Positions 9,737 to 55,985 of a stretch of 55,985 bases of DNA are shown here, piece after piece. Positions within the stretch are counted from its first letter, which is position 1. Every line of letters begins with the position of its first letter. This DNA comes from an uncultured Gemmatimonas sp. (lineage in GTDB: Bacteria > Latescibacterota > UBA2968 > SICM01): positions 2,114 through 58,098 of the forward strand of contig CAYRZX010000003.1 of the NCBI GenBank assembly GCA_964428665.1. Direction: 5' to 3'. The notes under the pieces were generated by a model. It did no database searches and was not told where the DNA came from. It saw only the letters and a list, made by a program, of their open reading frames with translations. A program made the position numbers and the translations under genes.

Positions 9737-10174
9737 ATGAAGGTCAGAGAGATTATGGACAGCAAGGGGTGGCGGGTGGTCACCATCAGCGCGCAGGCCA
9801 CGCTCCGCGAGGCGCTCTGCACGCTTGTCGAGAACAAGGTGGGGGCTTTGCCGGTCCAGGACGGCTTTGGCTCGGTCCAGGGCATCATCACCGAGCGGGA
9901 CCTCATGAGGGAGGTCTACAAAAACAGCCCCCTGGAGCGCACGAGGGTGGACCAGGTGATGACCCGGAACCTGATCACCTCGACCCCGGAGGACGACATT
10001 GAGTACGTCATGAAGGAGATGACGGAGCGGCGGTTCCGGCACATGCCCGTGATGGTGGACGGGGCGCTCGCGGGCATCATCTCCATCGGGGACATCGTCA
10101 AGGCGCAGTTGAACCACGCGAAGACCCAGATCACTCACCTGATCGATTACGTGGCGGGGCCTGTGGCCGGATAA
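9737..10174 (+). CDS. CBS domain pair protein
   Basis: 145 aa with two CBS repeats (GALPVQD..GIITERDL, HMPVMVDGALAGIISIGDIV). AGGAGG RBS. Confidence 0.85.
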   Translation: MKVREIMDSKGWRVVTISAQATLREALCTLVENKVGALPVQDGFGSVQGIITERDLMREVYKNSPLERTRVDQVMTRNLITSTPEDDIEYVMKEMTERRFRHMPVMVDGALAGIISIGDIVKAQLNHAKTQITHLIDYVAGPVAG

Positions 10175-10201
10175 AATCTACCCCCAGGACACCAGGACGA
10201 T

Positions 10202-10273
10202 CCGCAGATGGCGCAGATGAACGCAGACGGTTTTCTATCTGCGTCTATCTGCGAAATCTGCGGATTTGTTTTT
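10202..10273 (+). terminator. Repeat-built hairpin terminator (three 10-nt units with core GCAGAT and their complement)
   Basis: CCGCAGATGGCGCAGATGAACGCAGACGG-TTTT-CTATCTGCGTCTATCTGCGAAATCTGCGG. 23 of 29 positions are complementary, and ATTTGTTTTT follows. Confidence 0.7.
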
Positions 10274-10323
10274 AGATGTCGTGAAGCTGGTAATCTGCTC
10301 GCGCCCGTGAGCACGCGCATGGG

Positions 10324-11805
10324 TCACACCCCCTCCCGGTCCAGGGAGAGCCAGCGCGCGACCTGGGCCTGAGCAAAGTTGACTTCGCCCTCCGCGCGGG
10401 GTCCGCACAGACCGACCTGTCCGTAGCCCGTCACCCCCTCGCGGACGCCGTCCCGGTCCGGGTCCGTGTAGCGCAAGAACCATTCCGTCAGCCGATCCCG
10501 CATCTCCCGCTCTTTCGCCCGGCGCTCGGCCCTGCCTGCCAGATTCGTCGTCTCGCCGGGGTCGTTCCGCAGGTCGTAGAGCTCGTGAGGGCCATAAGGG
10601 TACCGGTGGATATACTTCCACTCCGGCGTGCGCACCGCGCGGACGGGCCCGTACTCGTCGAACACGACGACGTGCTCGTGGCCGGCCGGGGCATCCCCCC
10701 GCAGCCGGGCCGCAAAGCTGGTCCCCGGCAGGTCGCCGGCCGCAGGGGGCGCGACCCCGGCGTAGTCCAGCAGGGTCGGCAGGAAGTCGTACTGGCTGAG
10801 CAGGTCCGCGTTCGTGGCCCCCTCCGGGATGTGCCCTGGCCGGGAGACGAGGAAGGGGACCCGGATGGACTCCTCGAACATGTTCATCGGAAAGGTGGCG
10901 TTCCCCTTCCCGAAGACCCCGTGGTGCCCCATGTTCATGCCGTTGTCGCTGGTGAAGACGATGAGCGTGTTTTCGCGCAGGCGGTTGGCCTCCAGCCAGT
11001 CCAGCAGGCGTCCGACGCAGGCGTCCATCGCCGTGGTTGCCGCGTAGTAGCCGCTCAGGAAGACCCGCCGCTGGTCGGCGTCGCGGACGGGAATGCTGAG
11101 GTTCTTGGCCCAGGACGGGGGCGCCAGGCCGTCCGGGACGGACTTGAAAGGGCAGTTTTCAAAGTATCGGTCGTAGAGGGCCGGGGGGTGGTGCTCCCGC
11201 TGCCAGGGGGAGTGGGGCGCGGTGTAGTGCACGCTCAGGTAGAAGGGGCGGTCGGTGTCCTTCTCCCCCTCCAGAAAGGCGAGGGCGTTCTCCGTGATCG
11301 CGTCTGTGACGTAGCGCGGCTCTTCGTAGACCTCCCCGTCCCGGACCATCGGGGCGTTGTAATACGGGCCGCCCCCCTTGGCGTGGACCCTCCAGAAGGT
11401 GAACCCCTTCTGGGGACGGTGGGCGTCGCCCAGGTGCCATTTGCCGCTGAGGCCGCAGACGTAGCCCGCCGCCGTCAGCGCGTCCGTGTAGCCCGGCATG
11501 CCCTTGAGATACTCGATCAGTACGCCGTTCCTGGCGGGCTCGTAGCGGGCGACGGTGTTCCCCGCCGCGATCCAGTCGTGGACGCCGTGCTGGGAGGGGA
11601 TGCGGCCGGTGAGCAGGGTCGCCCGCGCGGGCGAGCAGACGGGGGACGCGCAGAAGAAGCGCTCGAAGCGCGTGCCGGCGCCGGCCAGCCGGTCCAGGTG
11701 AGGCGTCTCGATCTCCCGGTTCCCCTCACACCCCATCGCCCAGAAGCCCTGGTCGTCCGACAGGATGAACAGGATGTTCGGGCGGTTCGCGATGCGGCTT
11801 GCCAT
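10324..11805 (-). CDS. Sulfatase (formylglycine-dependent arylsulfatase family)
   Basis: ILFILSDDQG and the CSPARATLLTGR (C-x-P-x-R) signature. No obvious signal peptide. Confidence 0.9.
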   Translation of the reverse strand: MASRIANRPNILFILSDDQGFWAMGCEGNREIETPHLDRLAGAGTRFERFFCASPVCSPARATLLTGRIPSQHGVHDWIAAGNTVARYEPARNGVLIEYLKGMPGYTDALTAAGYVCGLSGKWHLGDAHRPQKGFTFWRVHAKGGGPYYNAPMVRDGEVYEEPRYVTDAITENALAFLEGEKDTDRPFYLSVHYTAPHSPWQREHHPPALYDRYFENCPFKSVPDGLAPPSWAKNLSIPVRDADQRRVFLSGYYAATTAMDACVGRLLDWLEANRLRENTLIVFTSDNGMNMGHHGVFGKGNATFPMNMFEESIRVPFLVSRPGHIPEGATNADLLSQYDFLPTLLDYAGVAPPAAGDLPGTSFAARLRGDAPAGHEHVVVFDEYGPVRAVRTPEWKYIHRYPYGPHELYDLRNDPGETTNLAGRAERRAKEREMRDRLTEWFLRYTDPDRDGVREGVTGYGQVGLCGPRAEGEVNFAQAQVARWLSLDREGV

Positions 11806-15023: not shown

Positions 15024-15123
15024 GGCCCTCACCCTCCCCCATGCCTTATGGAAAAGCCCTTGTTACCCCCTCCCTCTCCCGTACGTACGGGAGAGGGAGG
15101 GGGGTAGGGGGTGGGCGAGGGCC
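15024..15123. repeat. About 100-bp C-arm/G-arm element with terminal inverted repeats and a 38-bp perfect central palindrome
   Basis: Ends GGCCCTCACCCTCCCCC ... GGGGGTGGGCGAGGGCC. Core CCCCCTCCCTCTCCCGTAC|GTACGGGAGAGGGAGGGGG at 15066-15103. The left half is homologous to 22196-22240. Confidence 0.8.
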
Positions 15124-28555: not shown

Positions 28556-28697
28556 ACAGCGCGGAACGATGAACGCGGAACGATGAACGCGGAACGATGA
28601 AAAGGCAACGCGGAATGATGAACGCGGAACGATGAACGAAAAGCAAAACAAGTTTATGCCTTTACTTCATCGTTCTGACTTCATCGTTCATCGTTTA
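28556..28697. repeat. 14-nt (2x7) tandem array GCGGAAC-GATGAAC x5 plus inverted partner (GTTCATC units)
   Basis: Left array 28561-28637, right arm 28664-28697. Together they form a long imperfect hairpin between the dehydratase gene and rpmH. Confidence 0.85.
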
Positions 28698-28715
28698 ACA
28701 CAGGAGGCTTTTTCT

Positions 28716-45378: not shown

Positions 45379-45463
45379 AACGATGAAGTAGGAACGATGA
45401 ACGATGAACTGAAAACCCGAACGCCTTTTGCTTTTCGTTCATCGTTCATCATTCATCGTTCTG
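45379..45463. repeat. Heptamer hairpin repeat (GAACGAT units / TTCATCG units)
   Basis: Fills the whole gap between the beta-propeller gene stop and the ribD start. Same word family as 28556-28697. Confidence 0.85.
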
Positions 45464-49318: not shown

Positions 49319-51079
49319 TCATTCTCGTTCCACGGTCACCGTCGTCTGTTGCCCTCCGGCCAGGATGAACGCCGTGCGGATGCGGATGCGCGCCAGCACC
49401 GTCCCCTCCACCCGGTCCACGCCCCCGGTCTGCCGGGACATCCGCAGGATGGACAGCACGGAGGATGGGGGCGAGGGCAGCTCCTCTCCTGCCACGGTCA
49501 CGCCGCGCTCCTGAGAGACCACCTCCACGATCAGGTCGTCGTTCCGCTCCGCCTGGGAGATCAACTCCAGGAGGTGGGCAAAGTCTTTGGGGGCGTAGCG
49601 GCCCGGCGCGCGCTTGACCTCGATCTTCTCCAGGGCCTGCGCGCCCCCGGCCCGCACCACGAGCGGCCCGGCGGGGACGTAGGGGGGGAGGGCCACCCGG
49701 CCGGAGACCACCTGCTCCCCCCCGTGGAACGGCCTGATCGTCACCTCGAACGGGACCGCCTCGCCCGGCTGGAACCGGCCCCTGGGGAGCCTCAGCCCCT
49801 CCACCGAGGCCGTGTGCAGGCTCTCGTCCACGGCCACCTCGAATTGCACCTCCTTCACCGGCGCGGCCAGGAACGGGTTGTCCATCAGCGCGTCCAGCGG
49901 CTTCACCAGGTCCAGCACCGTCAGGCCCAGGGCCTGCGCCCCGGAGTAGGCGTTCTCCAAGTGGATGTCGGGATACCCCTCCATCCGGATGACCGACCGG
50001 GTGCGCGTGGTGACATCCCCGCTCTGCTTCTCGGCGGAGATCAGCGCGCTCAGCAGCGTGCCACGGGCCAGGATGGGCGTCAGGTCCGGGTGCCGGATCA
50101 TCTCGAAGCGATAGGCCTGCGTCCGGGCGTCGGATCGAACCGTCACCTCCACGGGGACCACGCTAGCGGCGCGTCCCACGACCCCCACGATGCCGGCGGC
50201 CCGGTCCTCCACGACGGCCCCCTGCTCCGCGGACGCCGCGCCCAGCTTGAACGAGATGAGCTGGCTGGGGATAATGCCGTAGATATGCGCAGAGGTCATC
50301 GGAAAGCTGCTCCGCCCGCCGTAGAGCATCGGATGGCCGAACGCCACCACCCGGCCCCTGTCCCGATACGTCAGCGTGCCGATGCCGGTCAGGCTCAGGT
50401 CCCCCCGGACAAGCTGCACGCCCAGGGCCGCCCCCGGCTCCAGGGGACCTGCGGCGAGCGTCGTGTCTGTTCCGCCTCCCCCCTGCACCGGCAGAAACCC
50501 GTAGGGCGCGAGATCGGCCCGCATCTGCTCCACGGCCCGGGGGGCAAACCCGCTGGCCGACAGGGGCACGGCCACCGGGCGCACCCCCTCCTGCCCGTGG
50601 TCCATCGGGAGATCCCTGGAGGACTCCCCCGCAGGACTGTTCAGACGTCCCCTGTCTGAAGGCAACGGAGAGGACCCAGGGGCCCGGTTCAGGGTCGCCA
50701 GCATGTCCGAGATCGGCGTGATCCCGCAGATCGGCTCCTTCGAGAACCCCCAGGCGTAGGCCACGGCCCCGATCAGTTTGCCGTCGATGTAGACCGGACT
50801 CCCGCTCATCCCCGCGATCACCCCCGTCTTCTCCAGAGGGCCCCCCGACAGCCGGGCGAGGATCACGTCCTCCCTGGGGCCGAATACGTTCCGCATCACA
50901 TCCACGATTTCCACGCCGAACGTGTCGATCTTTGTCCCCCGGAACACCGTCTTTCCGAACCCCGCCATGCCCGGACGGATCTGGTCCACACTTAGCGTCG
51001 GGACCTCCCCGGCCGCGCCGGAGGAGAGCAGGGCTATCCAAATAAGACACAAACACGAAACAGACAGGCGTTTTCGCAT
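49319..51079 (-). CDS. SpoIVB-type peptidase S55 domain protein (secreted)
   Basis: Signal peptide. GKTVFRGTKIDTFGVEIV...GMSGSPVYIDGKLIGAVAYAW matches the S55 serine-protease core. Confidence 0.7.
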   Translation of the reverse strand: MRKRLSVSCLCLIWIALLSSGAAGEVPTLSVDQIRPGMAGFGKTVFRGTKIDTFGVEIVDVMRNVFGPREDVILARLSGGPLEKTGVIAGMSGSPVYIDGKLIGAVAYAWGFSKEPICGITPISDMLATLNRAPGSSPLPSDRGRLNSPAGESSRDLPMDHGQEGVRPVAVPLSASGFAPRAVEQMRADLAPYGFLPVQGGGGTDTTLAAGPLEPGAALGVQLVRGDLSLTGIGTLTYRDRGRVVAFGHPMLYGGRSSFPMTSAHIYGIIPSQLISFKLGAASAEQGAVVEDRAAGIVGVVGRAASVVPVEVTVRSDARTQAYRFEMIRHPDLTPILARGTLLSALISAEKQSGDVTTRTRSVIRMEGYPDIHLENAYSGAQALGLTVLDLVKPLDALMDNPFLAAPVKEVQFEVAVDESLHTASVEGLRLPRGRFQPGEAVPFEVTIRPFHGGEQVVSGRVALPPYVPAGPLVVRAGGAQALEKIEVKRAPGRYAPKDFAHLLELISQAERNDDLIVEVVSQERGVTVAGEELPSPPSSVLSILRMSRQTGGVDRVEGTVLARIRIRTAFILAGGQQTTVTVERE

Positions 51080-51136
51080 AAAATCTCCGGATGAAGCGAG
51101 GACCTTGCCGCAAACTCAGTGGGGCCGTAATGAGGT

Positions 51137-51165
51137 AATATACCAAAAGAATTGTCGAATATCAA
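51137..51165 (-). promoter_or_regulatory. sigma70-type promoter TTGATA-17-TATATT
   Basis: Near-consensus hexamers on the minus strand, about 60 nt upstream of the S55 peptidase ATG. Confidence 0.6.
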
Positions 51166-51291
51166 ATCCCATGCAACTCCCCCCCTGCGCTCGCGAACAT
51201 GAGGCTTGAATTTCGGCGGAAATTTGTTATCTTAAGAACTCGCCAGATCTGGATAACATTCAGAATATACTCTTTTTTCGGAGGTTGCGCG

Positions 51292-52329
51292 ATGGCCTTC
51301 GTCGAGACCATGAAGCCCCGCGAGCGCGTCCTGGCGGCGCTCAACCGGCAGCCCGTGGACCGCACGCCCTGCTCCAACCCGACCTCGGTGGCCACGGTGG
51401 AGCTGATGGACCTGGTGGACGCCCCGTTCCCGGACGCCAACCGGGACCCGGAGAAGATGGCCCGGCTGGCCGCCACGGGCTACACGGAGCTCGGCTTCGA
51501 CAGCATCATGCCCGTGTTCACGATCATCCAGGAGTCCTCGGCCCTCGGCTGCGACATCCAGTGGGAGGAGAAGGACAACTGGCCCACGGTGCGGATGAAC
51601 CGGCCCATCTGGAAGGAGCCCGAGGACATCCGGATCCCGAAGGACCTCCTGACGCACAACGACACGAAGTGCGTCCTGGAGGCCATCCGCATCCTCAAGC
51701 GGGACTACGGCGACGAGGTCGCCATCATCGGCAAGACCATGGGCCCCTGGTCCCTCGGCTACCACTGCTTCGGCGTGGAGAACTTCCTGCTGATGTCCTA
51801 CGACGACTCCGACAAGACCAGGCGCTGTCTCGACCTCATGAAGGAGGCCACGGTGATCTTCGGCAACGCCCAGGTCGAGGCCGGCGCCGACGCCCTGACC
51901 CTCCCCGACCACGCCACCGGAGACCTGGTCAGCGGGGAATATTACAAGGAGTACCTGCAGGACCTCCATGTGGAGTTCGCCGACCGGATCAGGTGTCCGC
52001 TCATCCTCCACATCTGCGGGAACACCCTGGACCGGATGGGCTACATCGCGCAGACCGGCATGCACTGCTTCCACTTCGACTCCAAGAACGACCCGCAGGA
52101 GGCCCGCAGGGTCGTGGAGGGCAAGATCTCCCTCGTGGGGAATGTGAACAACCCCTCGACCCTCTACGCGCGCGCGCCCGAGGAGGTGCGGAAGGAGGTC
52201 TATCGCTGCCTCGACGCGGGCGTGGAGCTGGTCGCCCCGGAGTGCGCCATCCCCCTCCGCACGCGCTTAGAGAACCTGACGGAGATCCCGAAGGCGGTCA
52301 AGGACTGGCATCAGGAGCACGCGAGCTAA
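51292..52329 (+). CDS. MtaA/MtbA/CmuA-type methylcobamide:thiol methyltransferase (uroporphyrinogen decarboxylase fold)
   Basis: VATVELMDLVDAPFPDANRDPEKMARLA, ILHICGN, VAPECAIPLRTRLEN closely parallel methanogen MtaA, including the His/Cys/Cys zinc positions. GGAGG RBS. Confidence 0.85.
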   Translation: MAFVETMKPRERVLAALNRQPVDRTPCSNPTSVATVELMDLVDAPFPDANRDPEKMARLAATGYTELGFDSIMPVFTIIQESSALGCDIQWEEKDNWPTVRMNRPIWKEPEDIRIPKDLLTHNDTKCVLEAIRILKRDYGDEVAIIGKTMGPWSLGYHCFGVENFLLMSYDDSDKTRRCLDLMKEATVIFGNAQVEAGADALTLPDHATGDLVSGEYYKEYLQDLHVEFADRIRCPLILHICGNTLDRMGYIAQTGMHCFHFDSKNDPQEARRVVEGKISLVGNVNNPSTLYARAPEEVRKEVYRCLDAGVELVAPECAIPLRTRLENLTEIPKAVKDWHQEHAS

Positions 52330-52342
52330 CCTATCCCCCCAT

Positions 52343-52366
52343 CCCCCTTTCCTAAAGGAAAGGGGG
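52343..52366. repeat. C-arm/G-arm hairpin CCCCCTTTCC-TAAA-GGAAAGGGGG
   Basis: Perfect 10-bp stem between the first two genes of the corrinoid cluster. Confidence 0.8.
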
Positions 52367-52375
52367 AGCAGCCTT

Positions 52376-53272
52376 ATGAGAGAAACCATGAGCAGGAATG
52401 GACTCTTAGACCGCCTGAAATCCGGCGAGATTCTCATCTCCGACGGCGCCACGGGGACCTATCTCCAGGCCAGGGGCCTGGAGCCGGGCGGATGCCCGGA
52501 GGAGTGGAACGCCTCCCACCCGGAGGTCGTGCGGGGCATGGCCGCCGACTACTTTGCCGCCGGCTCCGACGCGGTGGAGACCAACTCCTTCGGCGGCAGC
52601 CCCTTCATGCTCAAGAAGTACGGCCATGCCGACCGCGTCGAAGAGCTGAACCGCCTGGCCGCCCGGCACGCCCGGAGCGCCGCCCCCCCCGGCCGCTACG
52701 TCATCGGCTCCGTGGGCCCCACCGGCGAGTTCCTGGAGCCCGTCGGCCCCGTGAGCGTTGAAGAGATGTACGAGGGGTTCGTCCGGCAGGTCACGGCCCT
52801 GGCCGAAGGCGGCGCCGACGCGATCTGCGCCGAGACCATGACCGCCCTCGATGAGGCATGCTTAGTCGTCCGGGCCACGAAGGAGCGCACGGGCCTCGTG
52901 GCCGTGGCGACGATGACCTTTGACAAGGGCCCGCGCGGGAACTTCACCATGATGGGCGTGACCCCGGAGGACGCGGTCCGGGGCCTGTTGGACGCCGGGG
53001 CGGACGTGGTGGGGGCCAACTGCGGCAACGGCATCCTCTACATGGTCGAGATCTCCGCGGAGATGCGGAGGGTCACCGACGCCCCCATTTTGATCCACGC
53101 CAACGCGGGCATCCCGGCCATTCGGAAGGGGCAGATCATCTACCCCGAAGCCCCCGACTGGATGGGCCCGCACTACCGGGCGCTCGTGGATGCCGGGGCC
53201 ACCTTCGTGGGCGGCTGCTGCGGCACGACGCCGGACCACATACGAGCCATCGTCAAGGCGTTACGTGGATAA
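52376..53272 (+). CDS. Homocysteine S-methyltransferase domain protein (stand-alone MetH/BHMT-type Hcy-binding module)
   Basis: DGATGT, ETNSFG, GANCGNG and GGCCGTTPDHI (zinc-thiolate Cys triad). Confidence 0.85.
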   Translation: MRETMSRNGLLDRLKSGEILISDGATGTYLQARGLEPGGCPEEWNASHPEVVRGMAADYFAAGSDAVETNSFGGSPFMLKKYGHADRVEELNRLAARHARSAAPPGRYVIGSVGPTGEFLEPVGPVSVEEMYEGFVRQVTALAEGGADAICAETMTALDEACLVVRATKERTGLVAVATMTFDKGPRGNFTMMGVTPEDAVRGLLDAGADVVGANCGNGILYMVEISAEMRRVTDAPILIHANAGIPAIRKGQIIYPEAPDWMGPHYRALVDAGATFVGGCCGTTPDHIRAIVKALRG

Positions 53273-53284
53273 TAGAACGTGTAG

Positions 53285-53304
53285 GGGCGACCGGCCGGTC
53301 GCCC
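53285..53304. promoter_or_regulatory. 20-bp perfect GC palindrome GGGCGACCGGCCGGTCGCCC (intercistronic hairpin or operator)
   Basis: Between the Hcy-domain gene and the corrinoid-protein gene, followed by TTACCTT. Confidence 0.4.
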
Positions 53305-53332
53305 TTACCTTGCCCTCACGAGGTTGCGATCC

Positions 53333-54085
53333 ATGCCGATTGTGAACGAAGGTATCCAGCAGGAGATCGACAAATACGTCACCCGTCCGGAGGAGAAGGA
53401 GAAGTTCACCGCCTGGTTCAGCGAGGTCTCCCCTCTGATGCAGGACATCGCCTACGCCCTGATCAAGGGCAAGCAGCACGACGTCAGCCGGCTGGTGAGA
53501 CAGGCCCTCGACGAGGGCGTGGAGGCCCACGACGCGCTGGACGATGGCCTGATCTCCGGCATGGGCATCGTCGGGGTGAAGTTCCGGGACAACATCATCT
53601 TCGTCCCGGAGGTCCTGGTGGCCGCGCGGGCCATGAAGGCGGGCATGGCCCACATCGAGCCCATCCTCTCCGCCGCCGGCATCGAGCCGGTCGGAAAGGT
53701 CATCATGGGCACGGTGAAGGGGGACCTCCACGACATCGGCAAAAATCTCTGCATCATGATGCTGCGCGGGTCCGGCTTCGAGGTGATCGACTTAGGCGTG
53801 GACACGAAGTCCGACCAGTTCATCGCGGCGGTGGAGGAGCACAGCGCCCGCATCGTGGGCATGTCCGCGCTTCTGACGACCACCATGCCCAACATGGGGA
53901 AGACCATCCAGGCGTTCATCGACGCCGGGCTGCGGGACGACGTCAAGATCATGGTCGGGGGCGCGCCCGTGACGCAGGAGTTTGCGGACGAGATGGGGGC
54001 CGACGGCTACGGCAAGGACGCCCTCGCCTGCGTGGCGAAGGCCAAGGAGTTCATCGCGGAGCTGGGCGTGGCCGTGGAGGCGTGA
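53333..54085 (+). CDS. Corrinoid (B12-binding) protein, MtaC/MetH-cap+Rossmann type
   Basis: GDLHDIGKN (DxHxxG), MSALLTTT (SxL), IMVGGAP (GG). ATG 53333 has better RBS spacing than TTG 53324. Confidence 0.9.
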   Translation: MPIVNEGIQQEIDKYVTRPEEKEKFTAWFSEVSPLMQDIAYALIKGKQHDVSRLVRQALDEGVEAHDALDDGLISGMGIVGVKFRDNIIFVPEVLVAARAMKAGMAHIEPILSAAGIEPVGKVIMGTVKGDLHDIGKNLCIMMLRGSGFEVIDLGVDTKSDQFIAAVEEHSARIVGMSALLTTTMPNMGKTIQAFIDAGLRDDVKIMVGGAPVTQEFADEMGADGYGKDALACVAKAKEFIAELGVAVEA

Positions 54086-54089
54086 GCCG

Positions 54090-54362
54090 ATGGCAGGACC
54101 GGACAGGGCGCGATTTCGGCGGAGCCTCGACCGGCTCAACGAGATCATGGCCGGGATCGTCAGGAAGGCGGAGGAGGTCTCGCTCCGGCGCTGCCCCTAC
54201 AAGAACGCCGAGGATCGGTGCACCGCCCACTTCGGGTGCCGCTACCAGAGGCCACCCACGGCGCCGGGCGGCCTGAAGGTCTGCACGAGCGACGACAAGC
54301 TGGACTACCGGAAGGCGTGGGAGGTCGATCCCGCGCCCCTCATCCCCCCCGATAAGGCCTGA
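54090..54362 (+). CDS. Hypothetical 90-aa four-cysteine protein
   Basis: GGAGG RBS. Cys pattern C-x9-C-x5-C-x14-C. No family recognised. Tight spacing inside the operon supports that it is coding. Confidence 0.5.
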   Translation: MAGPDRARFRRSLDRLNEIMAGIVRKAEEVSLRRCPYKNAEDRCTAHFGCRYQRPPTAPGGLKVCTSDDKLDYRKAWEVDPAPLIPPDKA

Positions 54363-54371
54363 TCCCTGCCC

Positions 54372-55985
54372 ATGGCCACCATCTCCCACGGCAACAAGAC
54401 CGCCGAACTCTCCGCAGGAAAGACCCTCTTCGACTACGCGGACGACCTGCGGGTGAAGGTCCCCACCTCCTGCCGCAGGACCGGTCGGTGCCACGAGTGC
54501 ATCGTCGAGGTCGCATCGGGCGCGGAGGCCCTCTCCCCGCCCACAGAGGCGGAGCAGTTTCTGAGGCCCCCCTACCGGCTCGCCTGCCAGACGGTCGTGG
54601 TCGACCCGGACCGCGACATCCGATTCTCCGTCCTCAAGCGCACCCCCCAGATCCTCACCCGGGGCAGGGAGACCGGCTTCGACCTCGACCCCTTCGTCCG
54701 GCGGCAGGGGGACCGGGTCTTTTGCGGCGACCGGGAGGTGGACGCCTACCGGGGGCGCATCCTGGGCCTCGCCGTGGACGCGGGCACGACCACGGTCGTG
54801 CTGAACCTGGTGGACTTAGAGGCCGGGGCCTGCCTCTGCACGAGCGCCTTCGAGAACCCTCAGCGGTTCGGGGGCAGCGACATCATGCACCGCATCTCCT
54901 ACGATGCGGGGCCCTACCGGGGGGAGCTGCACAAGGCGATCCTCAGCGCGCTCAACTACGAGGTCCGGGAGATGTGCCGGAGGCTCCGCCTCCCCCGCAG
55001 GGCGATCTACGAGGTCGTGGTCGTGGGCAACGCCACGATGCGCGACATCTTCTTTAACTTAGACGTCCAGACCATCGGCGAGAAGCCCTACAAGTCCATC
55101 ATCGAGCACGAGCTGGACGCGGGCAGGCGGACGACCACGGCCCTGACGACCACGGCCCGCGCCCTCGGCCTGCGCATCCACCCGAAGGCGAACGTCTACG
55201 GAGGCCCTCTGATCGGCTGTCACGTGGGCGCGGACGTGGCCGCCGATCTCCTGGCCGTCGGGATGGACCGGGAGCAGGGCGTGGTCATGCTCGTGGACAT
55301 CGGCACCAACACGGAGGTGGTCGTCGGAAACGCCGGCCGGATGATGGCCGCCTCCTGCCCGGCGGGCCCGGCGTTTGAGGGGGGGCTGATCACCTACGGC
55401 ATGCCGGGCTACGACGGGGCCATCCAGTCCGTGGCCATCCAGAACGGCTGCGTCCGCTATCGCACCGTCGGCGACGCCCCCGCCCAGGGCATCTGCGGGT
55501 CGGGGCTGATCGACCTCCTGGCCGAGCTGCGGCGCGCCGGGAAGATGGACGAGCTGGGGGTCTTCCCGGAGGAGATGGACAGGTTCGTCGTGGCCCCGGA
55601 CCGGGGCATCACCTTCTCGCGGGAGGATGTCAGCCACCTCGCCCAGGCCAAGGCGGCCAACTATTGCGGGCAGCGGATCGTCCTGCAAAATTACGGCGTC
55701 GGCCTGGAGGAGGTCCAGAAGCTCTACCTGGCCGGGGGGTTCGCCAACTACATCGACGTCCGGCACGCCGTGGAGATCGGGTTCATCCCCAACTTCCCGG
55801 AGGAGAAGATCGAGAAGGTGGGCAACGCCTCCCTCCAGGGGGCCACGGCCATGCTCCTGTCCAGGGCGAAGCGGGAGGCCCTGGAGCGCCTCGTGCGCCG
55901 CGTCGAGCACGTGGAGCTGGAGACCACACCGGACTTCTTCGATGTGTTCGTCGAAGGCTGCATGTTCAAGCCGATGTACGAATAA
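54372..55985 (+). CDS. Reductive activator of corrinoid proteins (RACo/RamA-like): [2Fe-2S] ferredoxin + ASKHA ATPase (DUF4445)
   Basis: N-terminal C-x5-C-x2-C...C ferredoxin motif (SCRRTGRCHECIV..LACQ) and ASKHA phosphate motifs (LGLAVDAGTTTV, VDIGTNTE). The stop is the last codon of the window. Confidence 0.85.
   Translation: MATISHGNKTAELSAGKTLFDYADDLRVKVPTSCRRTGRCHECIVEVASGAEALSPPTEAEQFLRPPYRLACQTVVVDPDRDIRFSVLKRTPQILTRGRETGFDLDPFVRRQGDRVFCGDREVDAYRGRILGLAVDAGTTTVVLNLVDLEAGACLCTSAFENPQRFGGSDIMHRISYDAGPYRGELHKAILSALNYEVREMCRRLRLPRRAIYEVVVVGNATMRDIFFNLDVQTIGEKPYKSIIEHELDAGRRTTTALTTTARALGLRIHPKANVYGGPLIGCHVGADVAADLLAVGMDREQGVVMLVDIGTNTEVVVGNAGRMMAASCPAGPAFEGGLITYGMPGYDGAIQSVAIQNGCVRYRTVGDAPAQGICGSGLIDLLAELRRAGKMDELGVFPEEMDRFVVAPDRGITFSREDVSHLAQAKAANYCGQRIVLQNYGVGLEEVQKLYLAGGFANYIDVRHAVEIGFIPNFPEEKIEKVGNASLQGATAMLLSRAKREALERLVRRVEHVELETTPDFFDVFVEGCMFKPMYE

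Follow-up and report, generated by a model that had tools for sequence, protein, structure and literature searches.

The DNA examined here is a 55,985-nt stretch of contig CAYRZX010000003.1 from an uncultured member of the Latescibacterota (the window), and its last five genes (51292-55985) are the first part of an operon-like cluster of at least nine genes. Their order is an MtaA-like methyltransferase, a stand-alone MetH-type homocysteine-binding (Hcy) module, a corrinoid protein (CP), a 90-residue protein termed s90, the activase RACo, MTHFR-MetV, MeTr, a PF13769 protein and a 2-hydroxyacid dehydrogenase. Judged by homology, the core of this cluster is very probably a split, RACo-reactivated, folate-dependent cobalamin methionine synthase that is supplied by its own MTHFR. 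The association of an MtaA-type enzyme and two small proteins, s90 and X226 (the latter encoded in related loci), with split MetH is robust and widespread. The more far-reaching reading, in which the MtaA-like enzyme gives the corrinoid protein a second entry or exit for sulfur-bound methyl groups, is put forward tentatively.

The five genes in the window lie on the + strand and are separated by gaps of 46, 60, 4 and 9 nt; an earlier note on this DNA, made from the sequence alone, had described them as co-directional and tightly spaced. The first gene (51292..52329) encodes an MtaA/MtbA-like zinc methyltransferase of 345 aa with the URO-D fold (PF01208, E 5e-69). It is followed by the Hcy module (52376..53272, 298 aa; PF02574, E 6e-65), which aligns end to end with the Hcy domains of Thermotoga maritima MetH and other MetH structures. 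Its residues C216 and C281/C282, kept without exception in 60/60 sequences, fall on the cysteines of the NC and GGCCGTTP motifs in T. maritima MetH (1q7m). At the level of alignment the protein is a counterpart of MtgE and of the Hcy part of split MetH. The corrinoid protein (53333..54085, 250 aa) combines cap (PF02607) and Rossmann (PF02310) domains, and its motifs D131-x-H133-xx-G136 (DLHDIG), S178-x-L180 (SAL) and G209-G210, unchanged in all 67 sequences compared, mark it as the predicted methyl carrier. After s90 (54090..54362), which has no Pfam or NCBIfam family, the fifth gene (54372..55985) encodes a RACo/RamA-type ATP-dependent reductive activase of 537 aa with Fer2 (PF00111), Raco_middle (PF17651) and RACo_C_ter (PF14574) domains. 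This protein scores 306 bits against NF040756 (AcsV-like) and keeps C34/C40/C43/C72 in 41 of 42 sequences; its predicted [2Fe-2S] ferredoxin and ASKHA domains would stand in for the PF02965 activation domain of MetH. The profile searches and structure-based alignments thus bear out the earlier assignments of an MtaA/MtbA-like enzyme with His/Cys/Cys zinc positions, a free Hcy module with a zinc-thiolate triad, a DxHxxG/SxL/GG corrinoid protein and a RACo/RamA-like activase, and the zinc ligands of both methyltransferases are kept on alignment.

The final base of the window is the last base of the RACo stop codon, and the cluster continues beyond it. An exact look-up of the RACo protein led to four public contigs; L001 (Ga0212128_10000805, JGI 3300022563) matches the final 11,614 nt of the window at 100% identity and extends 7.5 kb further. 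On this contig, a gene for MTHFR (PF02219) fused to a MetV-type C-terminal domain (PF12225; 544 aa in total) starts 137 nt past the RACo stop codon and is followed after 93 nt by MeTr, a methyl-tetrahydrofolate (methyl-THF):corrinoid methyltransferase of 342 aa (L001 13480-14508; PF00809, E 6e-24) whose best NCBIfam match is NF005719, methyltetrahydrofolate:corrinoid/iron-sulfur protein methyltransferase (E 7e-59). Eight nt after MeTr comes a PF13769 protein ('Virulence_fact', VirF) of 115 aa, for which no NCBIfam match was obtained, then the 2-hydroxyacid dehydrogenase (2-Hacid_dh), a tRNA (Rfam) and a transposase-related gene. The pterin-binding MeTr therefore lies about 1.9 kb beyond the window end, on DNA identical to that of the window. 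Within the window no pterin module was detected by tblastn with E. coli MetH and the L001 MeTr as queries, an absence that is due to the position of the window edge. Of the proteins encoded in the window, E. coli MetH matches the Hcy module (MetH residues 16-327) and the corrinoid protein (residues 650-839) alone; neither MetH residues 900-1227, used to look for the activation domain, nor E. coli MetE has a match there. The earlier note had taken the five genes as the whole cluster and had reported no pterin module, which is correct for the window and incorrect for the cluster. It had also proposed a folate-independent alternative methionine synthase, while stating that a pterin-binding MeTr gene immediately downstream would speak against this; a PF00809 MeTr follows MTHFR-MetV on L001, and for this genome the proposal is not upheld.

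With these parts, methylene-THF would be reduced to methyl-THF by MTHFR, and MeTr would transfer the methyl group to the Co(I) form of the corrinoid protein. The Hcy module would then pass the methyl group from methyl-Co(III) to zinc-bound homocysteine, yielding methionine, and RACo, probably aided by s90, would re-reduce oxidised Co(II) to Co(I) at the expense of ATP and a low-potential electron.

Split, RamA-reactivated methionine synthases have come to light only recently; in marine Proteobacteria, a betaine demethylase draws on the same corrinoid protein. A three-part MetH of Phaeobacter has been shown genetically to make methionine together with a RamA-like protein and DUF1638 (PMC5764234), while in Ruegeria MtgC and MtgD are needed in both methionine synthesis and betaine demethylation, MtgE being the Hcy module (PMC12478193). 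The cluster described here resembles the split MetH of Phaeobacter inhibens and Ruegeria pomeroyi in its separate PF02574, PF02607+PF02310 and PF00809 proteins, in the replacement of the activation domain by a Fer2+ASKHA activase and in having one corrinoid protein that would serve several methyltransferases. As in Proteobacterial split MetH clusters, a paralogous MTHFR (MetF2/MetV) and a PF13769 protein are linked to it. Unlike in Phaeobacter and Ruegeria, all parts are clustered and the host is Latescibacterota-like rather than Proteobacterial. DUF1638, present in Phaeobacter and Azoarcus, is missing among the called genes of L001, and its position is held by the unrelated s90; as far as sequence can tell, every other defining feature of the split MetH kind is present. 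On plasmid pAZKH of Azoarcus sp. KH32C (L092, NC_020548.1 163345-181515), the order is CP - DUF1638 - PF13769 - MetV - MetF - PF00809 - ASKHA, and this cluster adjoins a glycine-betaine transporter, purU and electron-transfer flavoprotein (ETF) genes. Its products share 49% (corrinoid protein), 40% (PF13769), 38% (MetV), 33% (MetF), 31% (MeTr) and 33% (the ASKHA protein against RACo) identity with those of the cluster studied here. The 'virulence factor' name of PF13769 is probably a misnomer for a corrinoid methyltransferase component. In Terrarubrum (L093), a B12-binding protein and DUF1638 precede a gene annotated 'virulence factor' (about 760 aa), of which the match covers just the N-terminal 56 residues.

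Other corrinoid systems can be distinguished by their domain content. In Ruegeria the additional methyltransferase is MtgB of the MttB family, unlike the MtaA-type URO-D zinc enzyme found here, and no MttB-superfamily protein (PF06253) occurs among the Pfam assignments of the called genes of L001, L094 and L095, which cover about 6.3-40.6 kb and 44.4-56.0 kb of the window plus 7.5 kb downstream; since no MttB-type protein appears among these genes, the cluster is not assigned to the MtgBCD systems. Type 1 mlp clusters, found in obligately anaerobic organisms (for the most part Firmicutes, but also Methanococcales), contain two or more Mlps (Mlp2 and Mlp3) and have been proposed to act in methyl-sulfur and methyl-selenium metabolism and methionine salvage (Kountz & Balskus, PMC10418091). 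In contrast, the present cluster has a single Mlp, a PF02574 Hcy module, s90 and, in related loci, usually X226, and its carriers are Chloroflexota, Acidobacteriota, Planctomycetota, Latescibacterota and others; because only one URO-D gene is present in the window or L001, it is not a type 1 mlp cluster. The Mes proteins (MesA-D, PMC7857596) share with it the idea of a zinc barrel of the URO-D/MetE clan that methylates homocysteine from a methyl-corrinoid protein without folate, but Mes enzymes belong to PF01717 (the C-terminal half of MetE), whereas the window enzyme matches PF01208 only and a dedicated PF02574 module is already present. The lack of PF01717 therefore excludes a Mes-type core synthase. 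In the literature searched, no account of a split MetH cluster that includes an MtaA-like gene was found. The split RamA/RACo-type MetH core is of a known kind; the MtaA-like gene and s90 set the cluster apart.

The MtaA-like enzyme belongs by its profile scores to the MtaA/CmuA family, with 284.5 bits against TIGR01463 (cut-off 235.4) and 289.5 against NF004889 (cut-off 244), and does not reach the MtaA/MtbA equivalog cut-offs (252 vs 400 for NF040654 and 212 vs 600 for NF041608), so that it is classed as a family member without being an orthologue of MtaA or MtbA. Alignment with Methanosarcina mazei MtaA (4ay7; E 2e-56, 37% identity) places LHICGN on LHICGN and APEC on APGC, and the zinc ligands H240/C242 (LHICGN) and C318 (APEC) are invariant in 82-83 of 83 orthologues. 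PF01208 is its only Pfam match, the PF01717 barrel not being matched, and a sequence search of the PDB gave no similarity to solved URO-D-type enzymes beyond MtaA and true uroporphyrinogen decarboxylases. Among 72,556 plasmids searched by tblastn, no CmuA-like match was obtained at E <= 1e-5; the plasmid matches to the URO-D protein reach only about 25% identity and concern hemE-like or other URO-D genes. Ten orthologue clusters looked up for cultured hosts contained only metagenome-assembled genomes. In the URO-D superfamily, the His-Cys-Cys zinc site marks S- and Se-methyltransferases, and O-demethylases carry carboxylates in its place (PMC10418091). As the MtaA-like enzyme passes TIGR01463 and NF004889 and has the His-Cys-Cys site, it is assigned as a putative S-methyltransferase whose reaction at the shared corrinoid protein is most likely the interconversion of R-S-CH3 and R-SH. 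It shares with MtaA/MtbA and MtsA/MtpA the URO-D fold, the His-x-Cys...Cys zinc site and a position beside an MtaC-like corrinoid protein and a Ram-type activase. It differs from methanogen MT2 enzymes in its bacterial host without a methanogenesis context and in its partner, which is a MetH Hcy module or MeTr instead of MtaB or MtbB; coenzyme M is an unlikely substrate. Genes of this kind should neither be named coenzyme M methyltransferase nor be read as a sign of methanogenesis.

A scan of one genome per species with the MtaA-like enzyme yielded 151 relatives, of which the best 80 (70-92% identity) were analysed by tblastn annotation of +/-10 kb around each orthologue. These 80 loci, many of them on complete chromosomes, come from Latescibacterota, Dehalococcoidia/SAR202, other Chloroflexota, Acidobacteriota, Planctomycetota, Entotheonella, SAR324, Verrucomicrobiota and Kiritimatiellia, that is, from at least eight phyla. 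Within the flanks, the corrinoid protein and X226 were each found in 65/80 genomes, s90 in 64 (where its gene immediately follows that of the corrinoid protein), the Hcy module in 58, RACo in at least 40, PF13769 in 32, the 2-hydroxyacid dehydrogenase in 23, MeTr in 9 and MTHFR in 6. The Hcy module is present in 55 of the 65 genomes that keep the corrinoid protein, which agrees with the pairing of MtaA-type and MetH-type zinc-thiol methyltransferases around one corrinoid protein proposed in the earlier note and with the co-occurrence of the two genes in related genomes. Approached from the Hcy module, all three homologue contexts (67-72% identity) also carry an MtaA-like gene. The MtaA-like gene is thus truly part of the system. 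Median identities are 71% for URO-D, 69% for the corrinoid protein, 64% for the Hcy module and 63% for RACo, the higher URO-D value being biased because the loci were picked by URO-D similarity. A second URO-D copy occurs in 1/80 loci (L078).

The window order recurs in a groundwater Chloroflexota genome (L012: URO-D - Hcy - CP - s90 - RACo - MTHFR - MetV - MeTr). The most frequent layout, which includes X226, is PF13769 - Hcy - X226 - URO-D - CP - s90 - RACo. Five Acidobacteriota loci (L015, L017, L029, L030, L086) show MetV - MetF - PF13769 - X226 - URO-D - MeTr - CP - s90 - RACo - dehydrogenase. One of these, L086, carries sarcosine-oxidase-like genes (a SoxA-type gene with GCV_T, a GCV_T protein and DAO) and a glutamine-synthetase-like gene just upstream of the cluster (L086:1-4976), neighbours that place this cluster in a one-carbon (C1)/methylated-amine context. 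Eleven genomes (L041, L043, L047, L048, L050, L051, L058, L063, L068, L024, L025) contain a solitary URO-D orthologue (about 71% identity, gene at about 10001-11040), whose 10-kb flanks hold neither a corrinoid protein nor an Hcy module nor RACo. A HIBADH-like dehydrogenase gene precedes it in nine Dehalococcoidia; this gene, a thiamine-pyrophosphate (TPP) enzyme and a luciferase-like gene are the neighbours of the solitary copies and give no functional hint. No transporter, riboswitch or catabolic gene conserved with the cluster was found among the neighbourhoods examined.

For the MtaA-like enzyme, a donor-side role is proposed by analogy and with some reserve: like MtsA and MtpA, it may demethylate a methyl thioether or methanethiol and pass the methyl group to Co(I), so that folate and a scavenged methyl-sulfur compound would be alternative methyl sources for homocysteine. 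MT2-type enzymes (MtsA, MtpA) can demethylate dimethyl sulfide (DMS) or methylmercaptopropionate (MMPA) onto a corrinoid protein (bioRxiv 10.1101/548461). In 50 of the 65 clusters with a corrinoid protein, the MtaA-like enzyme and the Hcy module are the sole two methyltransferases near it, and only with the MtaA-like enzyme in the donor role would both a donor and an acceptor be present there; transfer from a thioether to homocysteine is, in addition, roughly thermoneutral. Several points weigh against the proposal. Methyl transfer from methyl-pterin to a thiol releases about 30 kJ/mol (~ -30 kJ/mol), and the physiological direction of MtaA and MtbA is from methyl-Co to the thiol. The five Acidobacteriota clusters have no Hcy module within 10 kb and, if self-contained, would favour transfer from methyl-THF to a thiol, with the MtaA-like enzyme on the acceptor side. 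An identity of 70-92% over at least eight phyla is easier to reconcile with a universal substrate than with a niche nutrient, and the substrate of the enzyme is predicted only as a thioether or thiol. In the closest genome-level relative (L006, Latescibacterota, 88% identity), MTHFR-MetV follows RACo, and no MeTr was found in the next 4.6 kb. In the window lineage, the 137-nt gap and a REP-like (repetitive extragenic palindromic) 38-nt palindrome between RACo and MTHFR make co-transcription of the two halves of the cluster putative. Since the parts of split MetH are often unlinked, gene neighbourhoods cannot fix the direction of the MtaA-like enzyme. The donor-side reading is slightly favoured over the acceptor-side one; a flow of methyl groups the other way, onto a second thiol, is almost equally probable.

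On the acceptor side, the MtaA-like enzyme would S-methylate a thiol other than homocysteine (or sulfide or selenide) with folate-derived methyl groups from the shared corrinoid protein, and the operon would amount to a methionine synthase plus a second methylcorrinoid:thiol methyltransferase working in the physiological direction of MtaA and MtbA. This alternative, rated as credible though rather doubtful, draws on the 37% identity to MtaA, on scores above the family cut-offs for methylcobalamin:CoM methyltransferase, on a degree of conservation that suggests a common cellular thiol and on the Acidobacteriota clusters of MetVF, MeTr, URO-D and corrinoid protein, which are complete without an Hcy module only in this way. 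A related bacterial Mlp, ClMlp2, methylates selenide and sulfide from methylcobalamin in vitro (PMC10418091). However, the 50 clusters noted above would then have two acceptors and no donor near the corrinoid protein, the neighbourhoods offer no candidate thiol or pathway (only the generic 2-hydroxyacid dehydrogenase recurs), and no coenzyme M genes were seen. A folate-independent synthase, in which the MtaA-like enzyme, the corrinoid protein and the Hcy module replace both MetH and MetE by carrying a methyl group from a small donor via cobalamin to homocysteine, is quite improbable. It is suggested by the arrangement VirF - Hcy - X226 - URO-D - CP - s90 - RACo, which lacks MeTr and MTHFR within +/-10 kb in most related genomes, and by the thermoneutral transfer for which MtsA and MtpA are precedents, yet in this genome MTHFR and a PF00809 MeTr directly follow the cluster, and an essential enzyme needs an endogenous methyl donor, none being evident except methyl-THF. 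That 56 of the 65 related clusters lack a MeTr within 10 kb does not speak for folate independence, because the parts of split MetH are commonly unlinked and an unlinked MeTr is normal there (PMC12478193), so that absence from a 10-kb flank says little.

A variant of the last idea treats the seven-part module of PF13769, Hcy module, X226, MtaA-like enzyme, corrinoid protein, s90 and RACo as a transmethylase that is complete in itself, needs no folate and forms methionine with methyl groups taken from a methyl-sulfur donor. It is held to be unlikely, as is its corollary that the window lineage has merged this module with the folate branch; the donors could be methanethiol, DMS, MMPA or a thioether derived from methylthioadenosine (MTA). 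The least probable proposal makes the MtaA-like enzyme a catabolic MT I in the place of MtgB or CmuA that demethylates an activated donor, for example a sulfonium such as dimethylsulfoniopropionate (DMSP), with MeTr and MTHFR working oxidatively to feed C1 metabolism and methionine synthesis as a side branch, as in MtgBCDE of Ruegeria. The homology of the CP/VirF/MetV/MetF/MeTr/RACo core to the betaine-associated Azoarcus cluster, the sarcosine oxidase genes beside one Acidobacteriota version, the recurring 2-hydroxyacid dehydrogenase, which could be a hydroxypyruvate reductase, and the many marine carriers, whose assembly names suggest symbiont metagenomes, speak for such a role. It is opposed by the His/Cys/Cys zinc site, which points to thiolate chemistry, by the strongly uphill transfer of methyl groups from thioethers to THF, by the lack of conserved transporter or downstream catabolic genes, by the occurrence of carriers in freshwater and groundwater lineages, where DMSP is scarce, and by the plasmid search mentioned above, which gave no CmuA-like match.

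The cluster also draws attention to two uncharacterised families with invariant cysteines. The s90 protein consists of an N-terminal helix followed by an RCPYK-x5-C-x5-C-x14-C...LDYR-AW motif, and its four cysteines, invariant across 65 distinct sequences, are spaced C-x8-C-x5-C-x14-C; the earlier note had correctly reported a four-cysteine protein without a family but had given the first interval as C-x9-C. An exhaustive search over 1.8 billion representative proteins recovered only 151 clusters of s90. In P0328 (647 aa: s90 + Fer2 + Raco_middle + RACo_C_ter), s90 is fused in frame to the N-terminus of RACo, and further fusions occur in the metagenomic protein fragments P0310, P0323, P0360 and P0380; with a mere 9 nt between the two genes, some of the fusions may be read-throughs from gene calling. 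Owing to these natural fusions, s90 is probably a metal-binding accessory of the RACo activase. An AlphaFold2 (AF2) model from a 13-sequence alignment reached a pLDDT of 58, with only helix 5-33 confident and the cysteine-rich part poor. Although s90 holds the position that DUF1638 has in Proteobacterial split-MetH clusters, the possibility that it is a reduced DUF1638 was rejected, as no sequence similarity between the two was found. The second family, X226, comprises proteins of about 226 aa (L021:9275-9955 (+), L005:9054-9734 and L089:10920-11591, among others) with two invariant CGxxH motifs (C89/H93 and C182/H186), and its gene almost always lies directly upstream of the MtaA-like gene. 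No Pfam or NCBIfam match, no real match in a PDB profile search and no plasmid match were obtained for X226. Planctomycetota versions are divergent (24-32% identity), and the family is absent from the window and from its closest relatives.

These observations flag s90 as a candidate RACo accessory and X226 as a candidate partner of the MtaA-like enzyme, both as components of corrinoid methyltransferase systems. They also describe, in Latescibacterota, Chloroflexota/SAR202, Acidobacteriota, Planctomycetota, Entotheonella and SAR324, a set-up parallel to that of the marine Proteobacteria, in which a corrinoid protein appears to be shared with a methanogen-type zinc S-methyltransferase. If the MtaA-like enzyme does load methyl groups from methyl-sulfur compounds, the organic sulfur cycle would be tied directly to methionine synthesis, and abundant uncultured bacteria would have an additional demand for cobalamin. 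If the folate-independent transmethylase existed, it would represent a corrinoid-dependent way of salvaging methyl groups for methionine in aerobic Chloroflexota, Acidobacteriota, Planctomycetota, Latescibacterota and relatives, and two new protein families would be indispensable to it.

The operon is preceded by a 212-nt intergenic region (51080..51291, + strand) common to it and a divergent Peptidase_S55 gene, in which no + strand sigma-70-like site was found. Rfam gave no riboswitch match in 50900-51500 even at E <= 1, and no riboswitch or leader of the cluster was detected in the window, L001 or three related loci. Two intergenic regions, at 15072-15097 of the window and at 11668-11705 of L001, contain a GC-rich perfect palindrome (CCCCCTCCCTCTCCCGTAC/GTACGGGAGAGGGAGGGGG). 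Its 26-nt core CCCTCTCCCGTACGTACGGGAGAGGG is identical at both sites, and the L001 copy lies 54 nt past the window end, between RACo and MTHFR. With no T-run after it, the palindrome looks more like a REP-type dispersed element than a specific regulator. Dispersed elements in which 7-nt repeats are arranged as inverted runs, with (GAACGNN)n in one arm and (TTCATCG)n in the second, form long imperfect hairpins in intergenic regions at 28567-28700 and 45381-45458 of the window and at 13303-13472 of L001, where the element lies between MTHFR and MeTr and reaches into the 3' end of MTHFR, giving it a repetitive tail. Elsewhere in the window, a lysine riboswitch (RF00168, 6439-6621 on the minus strand, 89 bits, E 1e-21) is located immediately upstream of a minus-strand gene with aspartate-semialdehyde dehydrogenase domains (Semialdhyde_dh in the neighbour list of L095).

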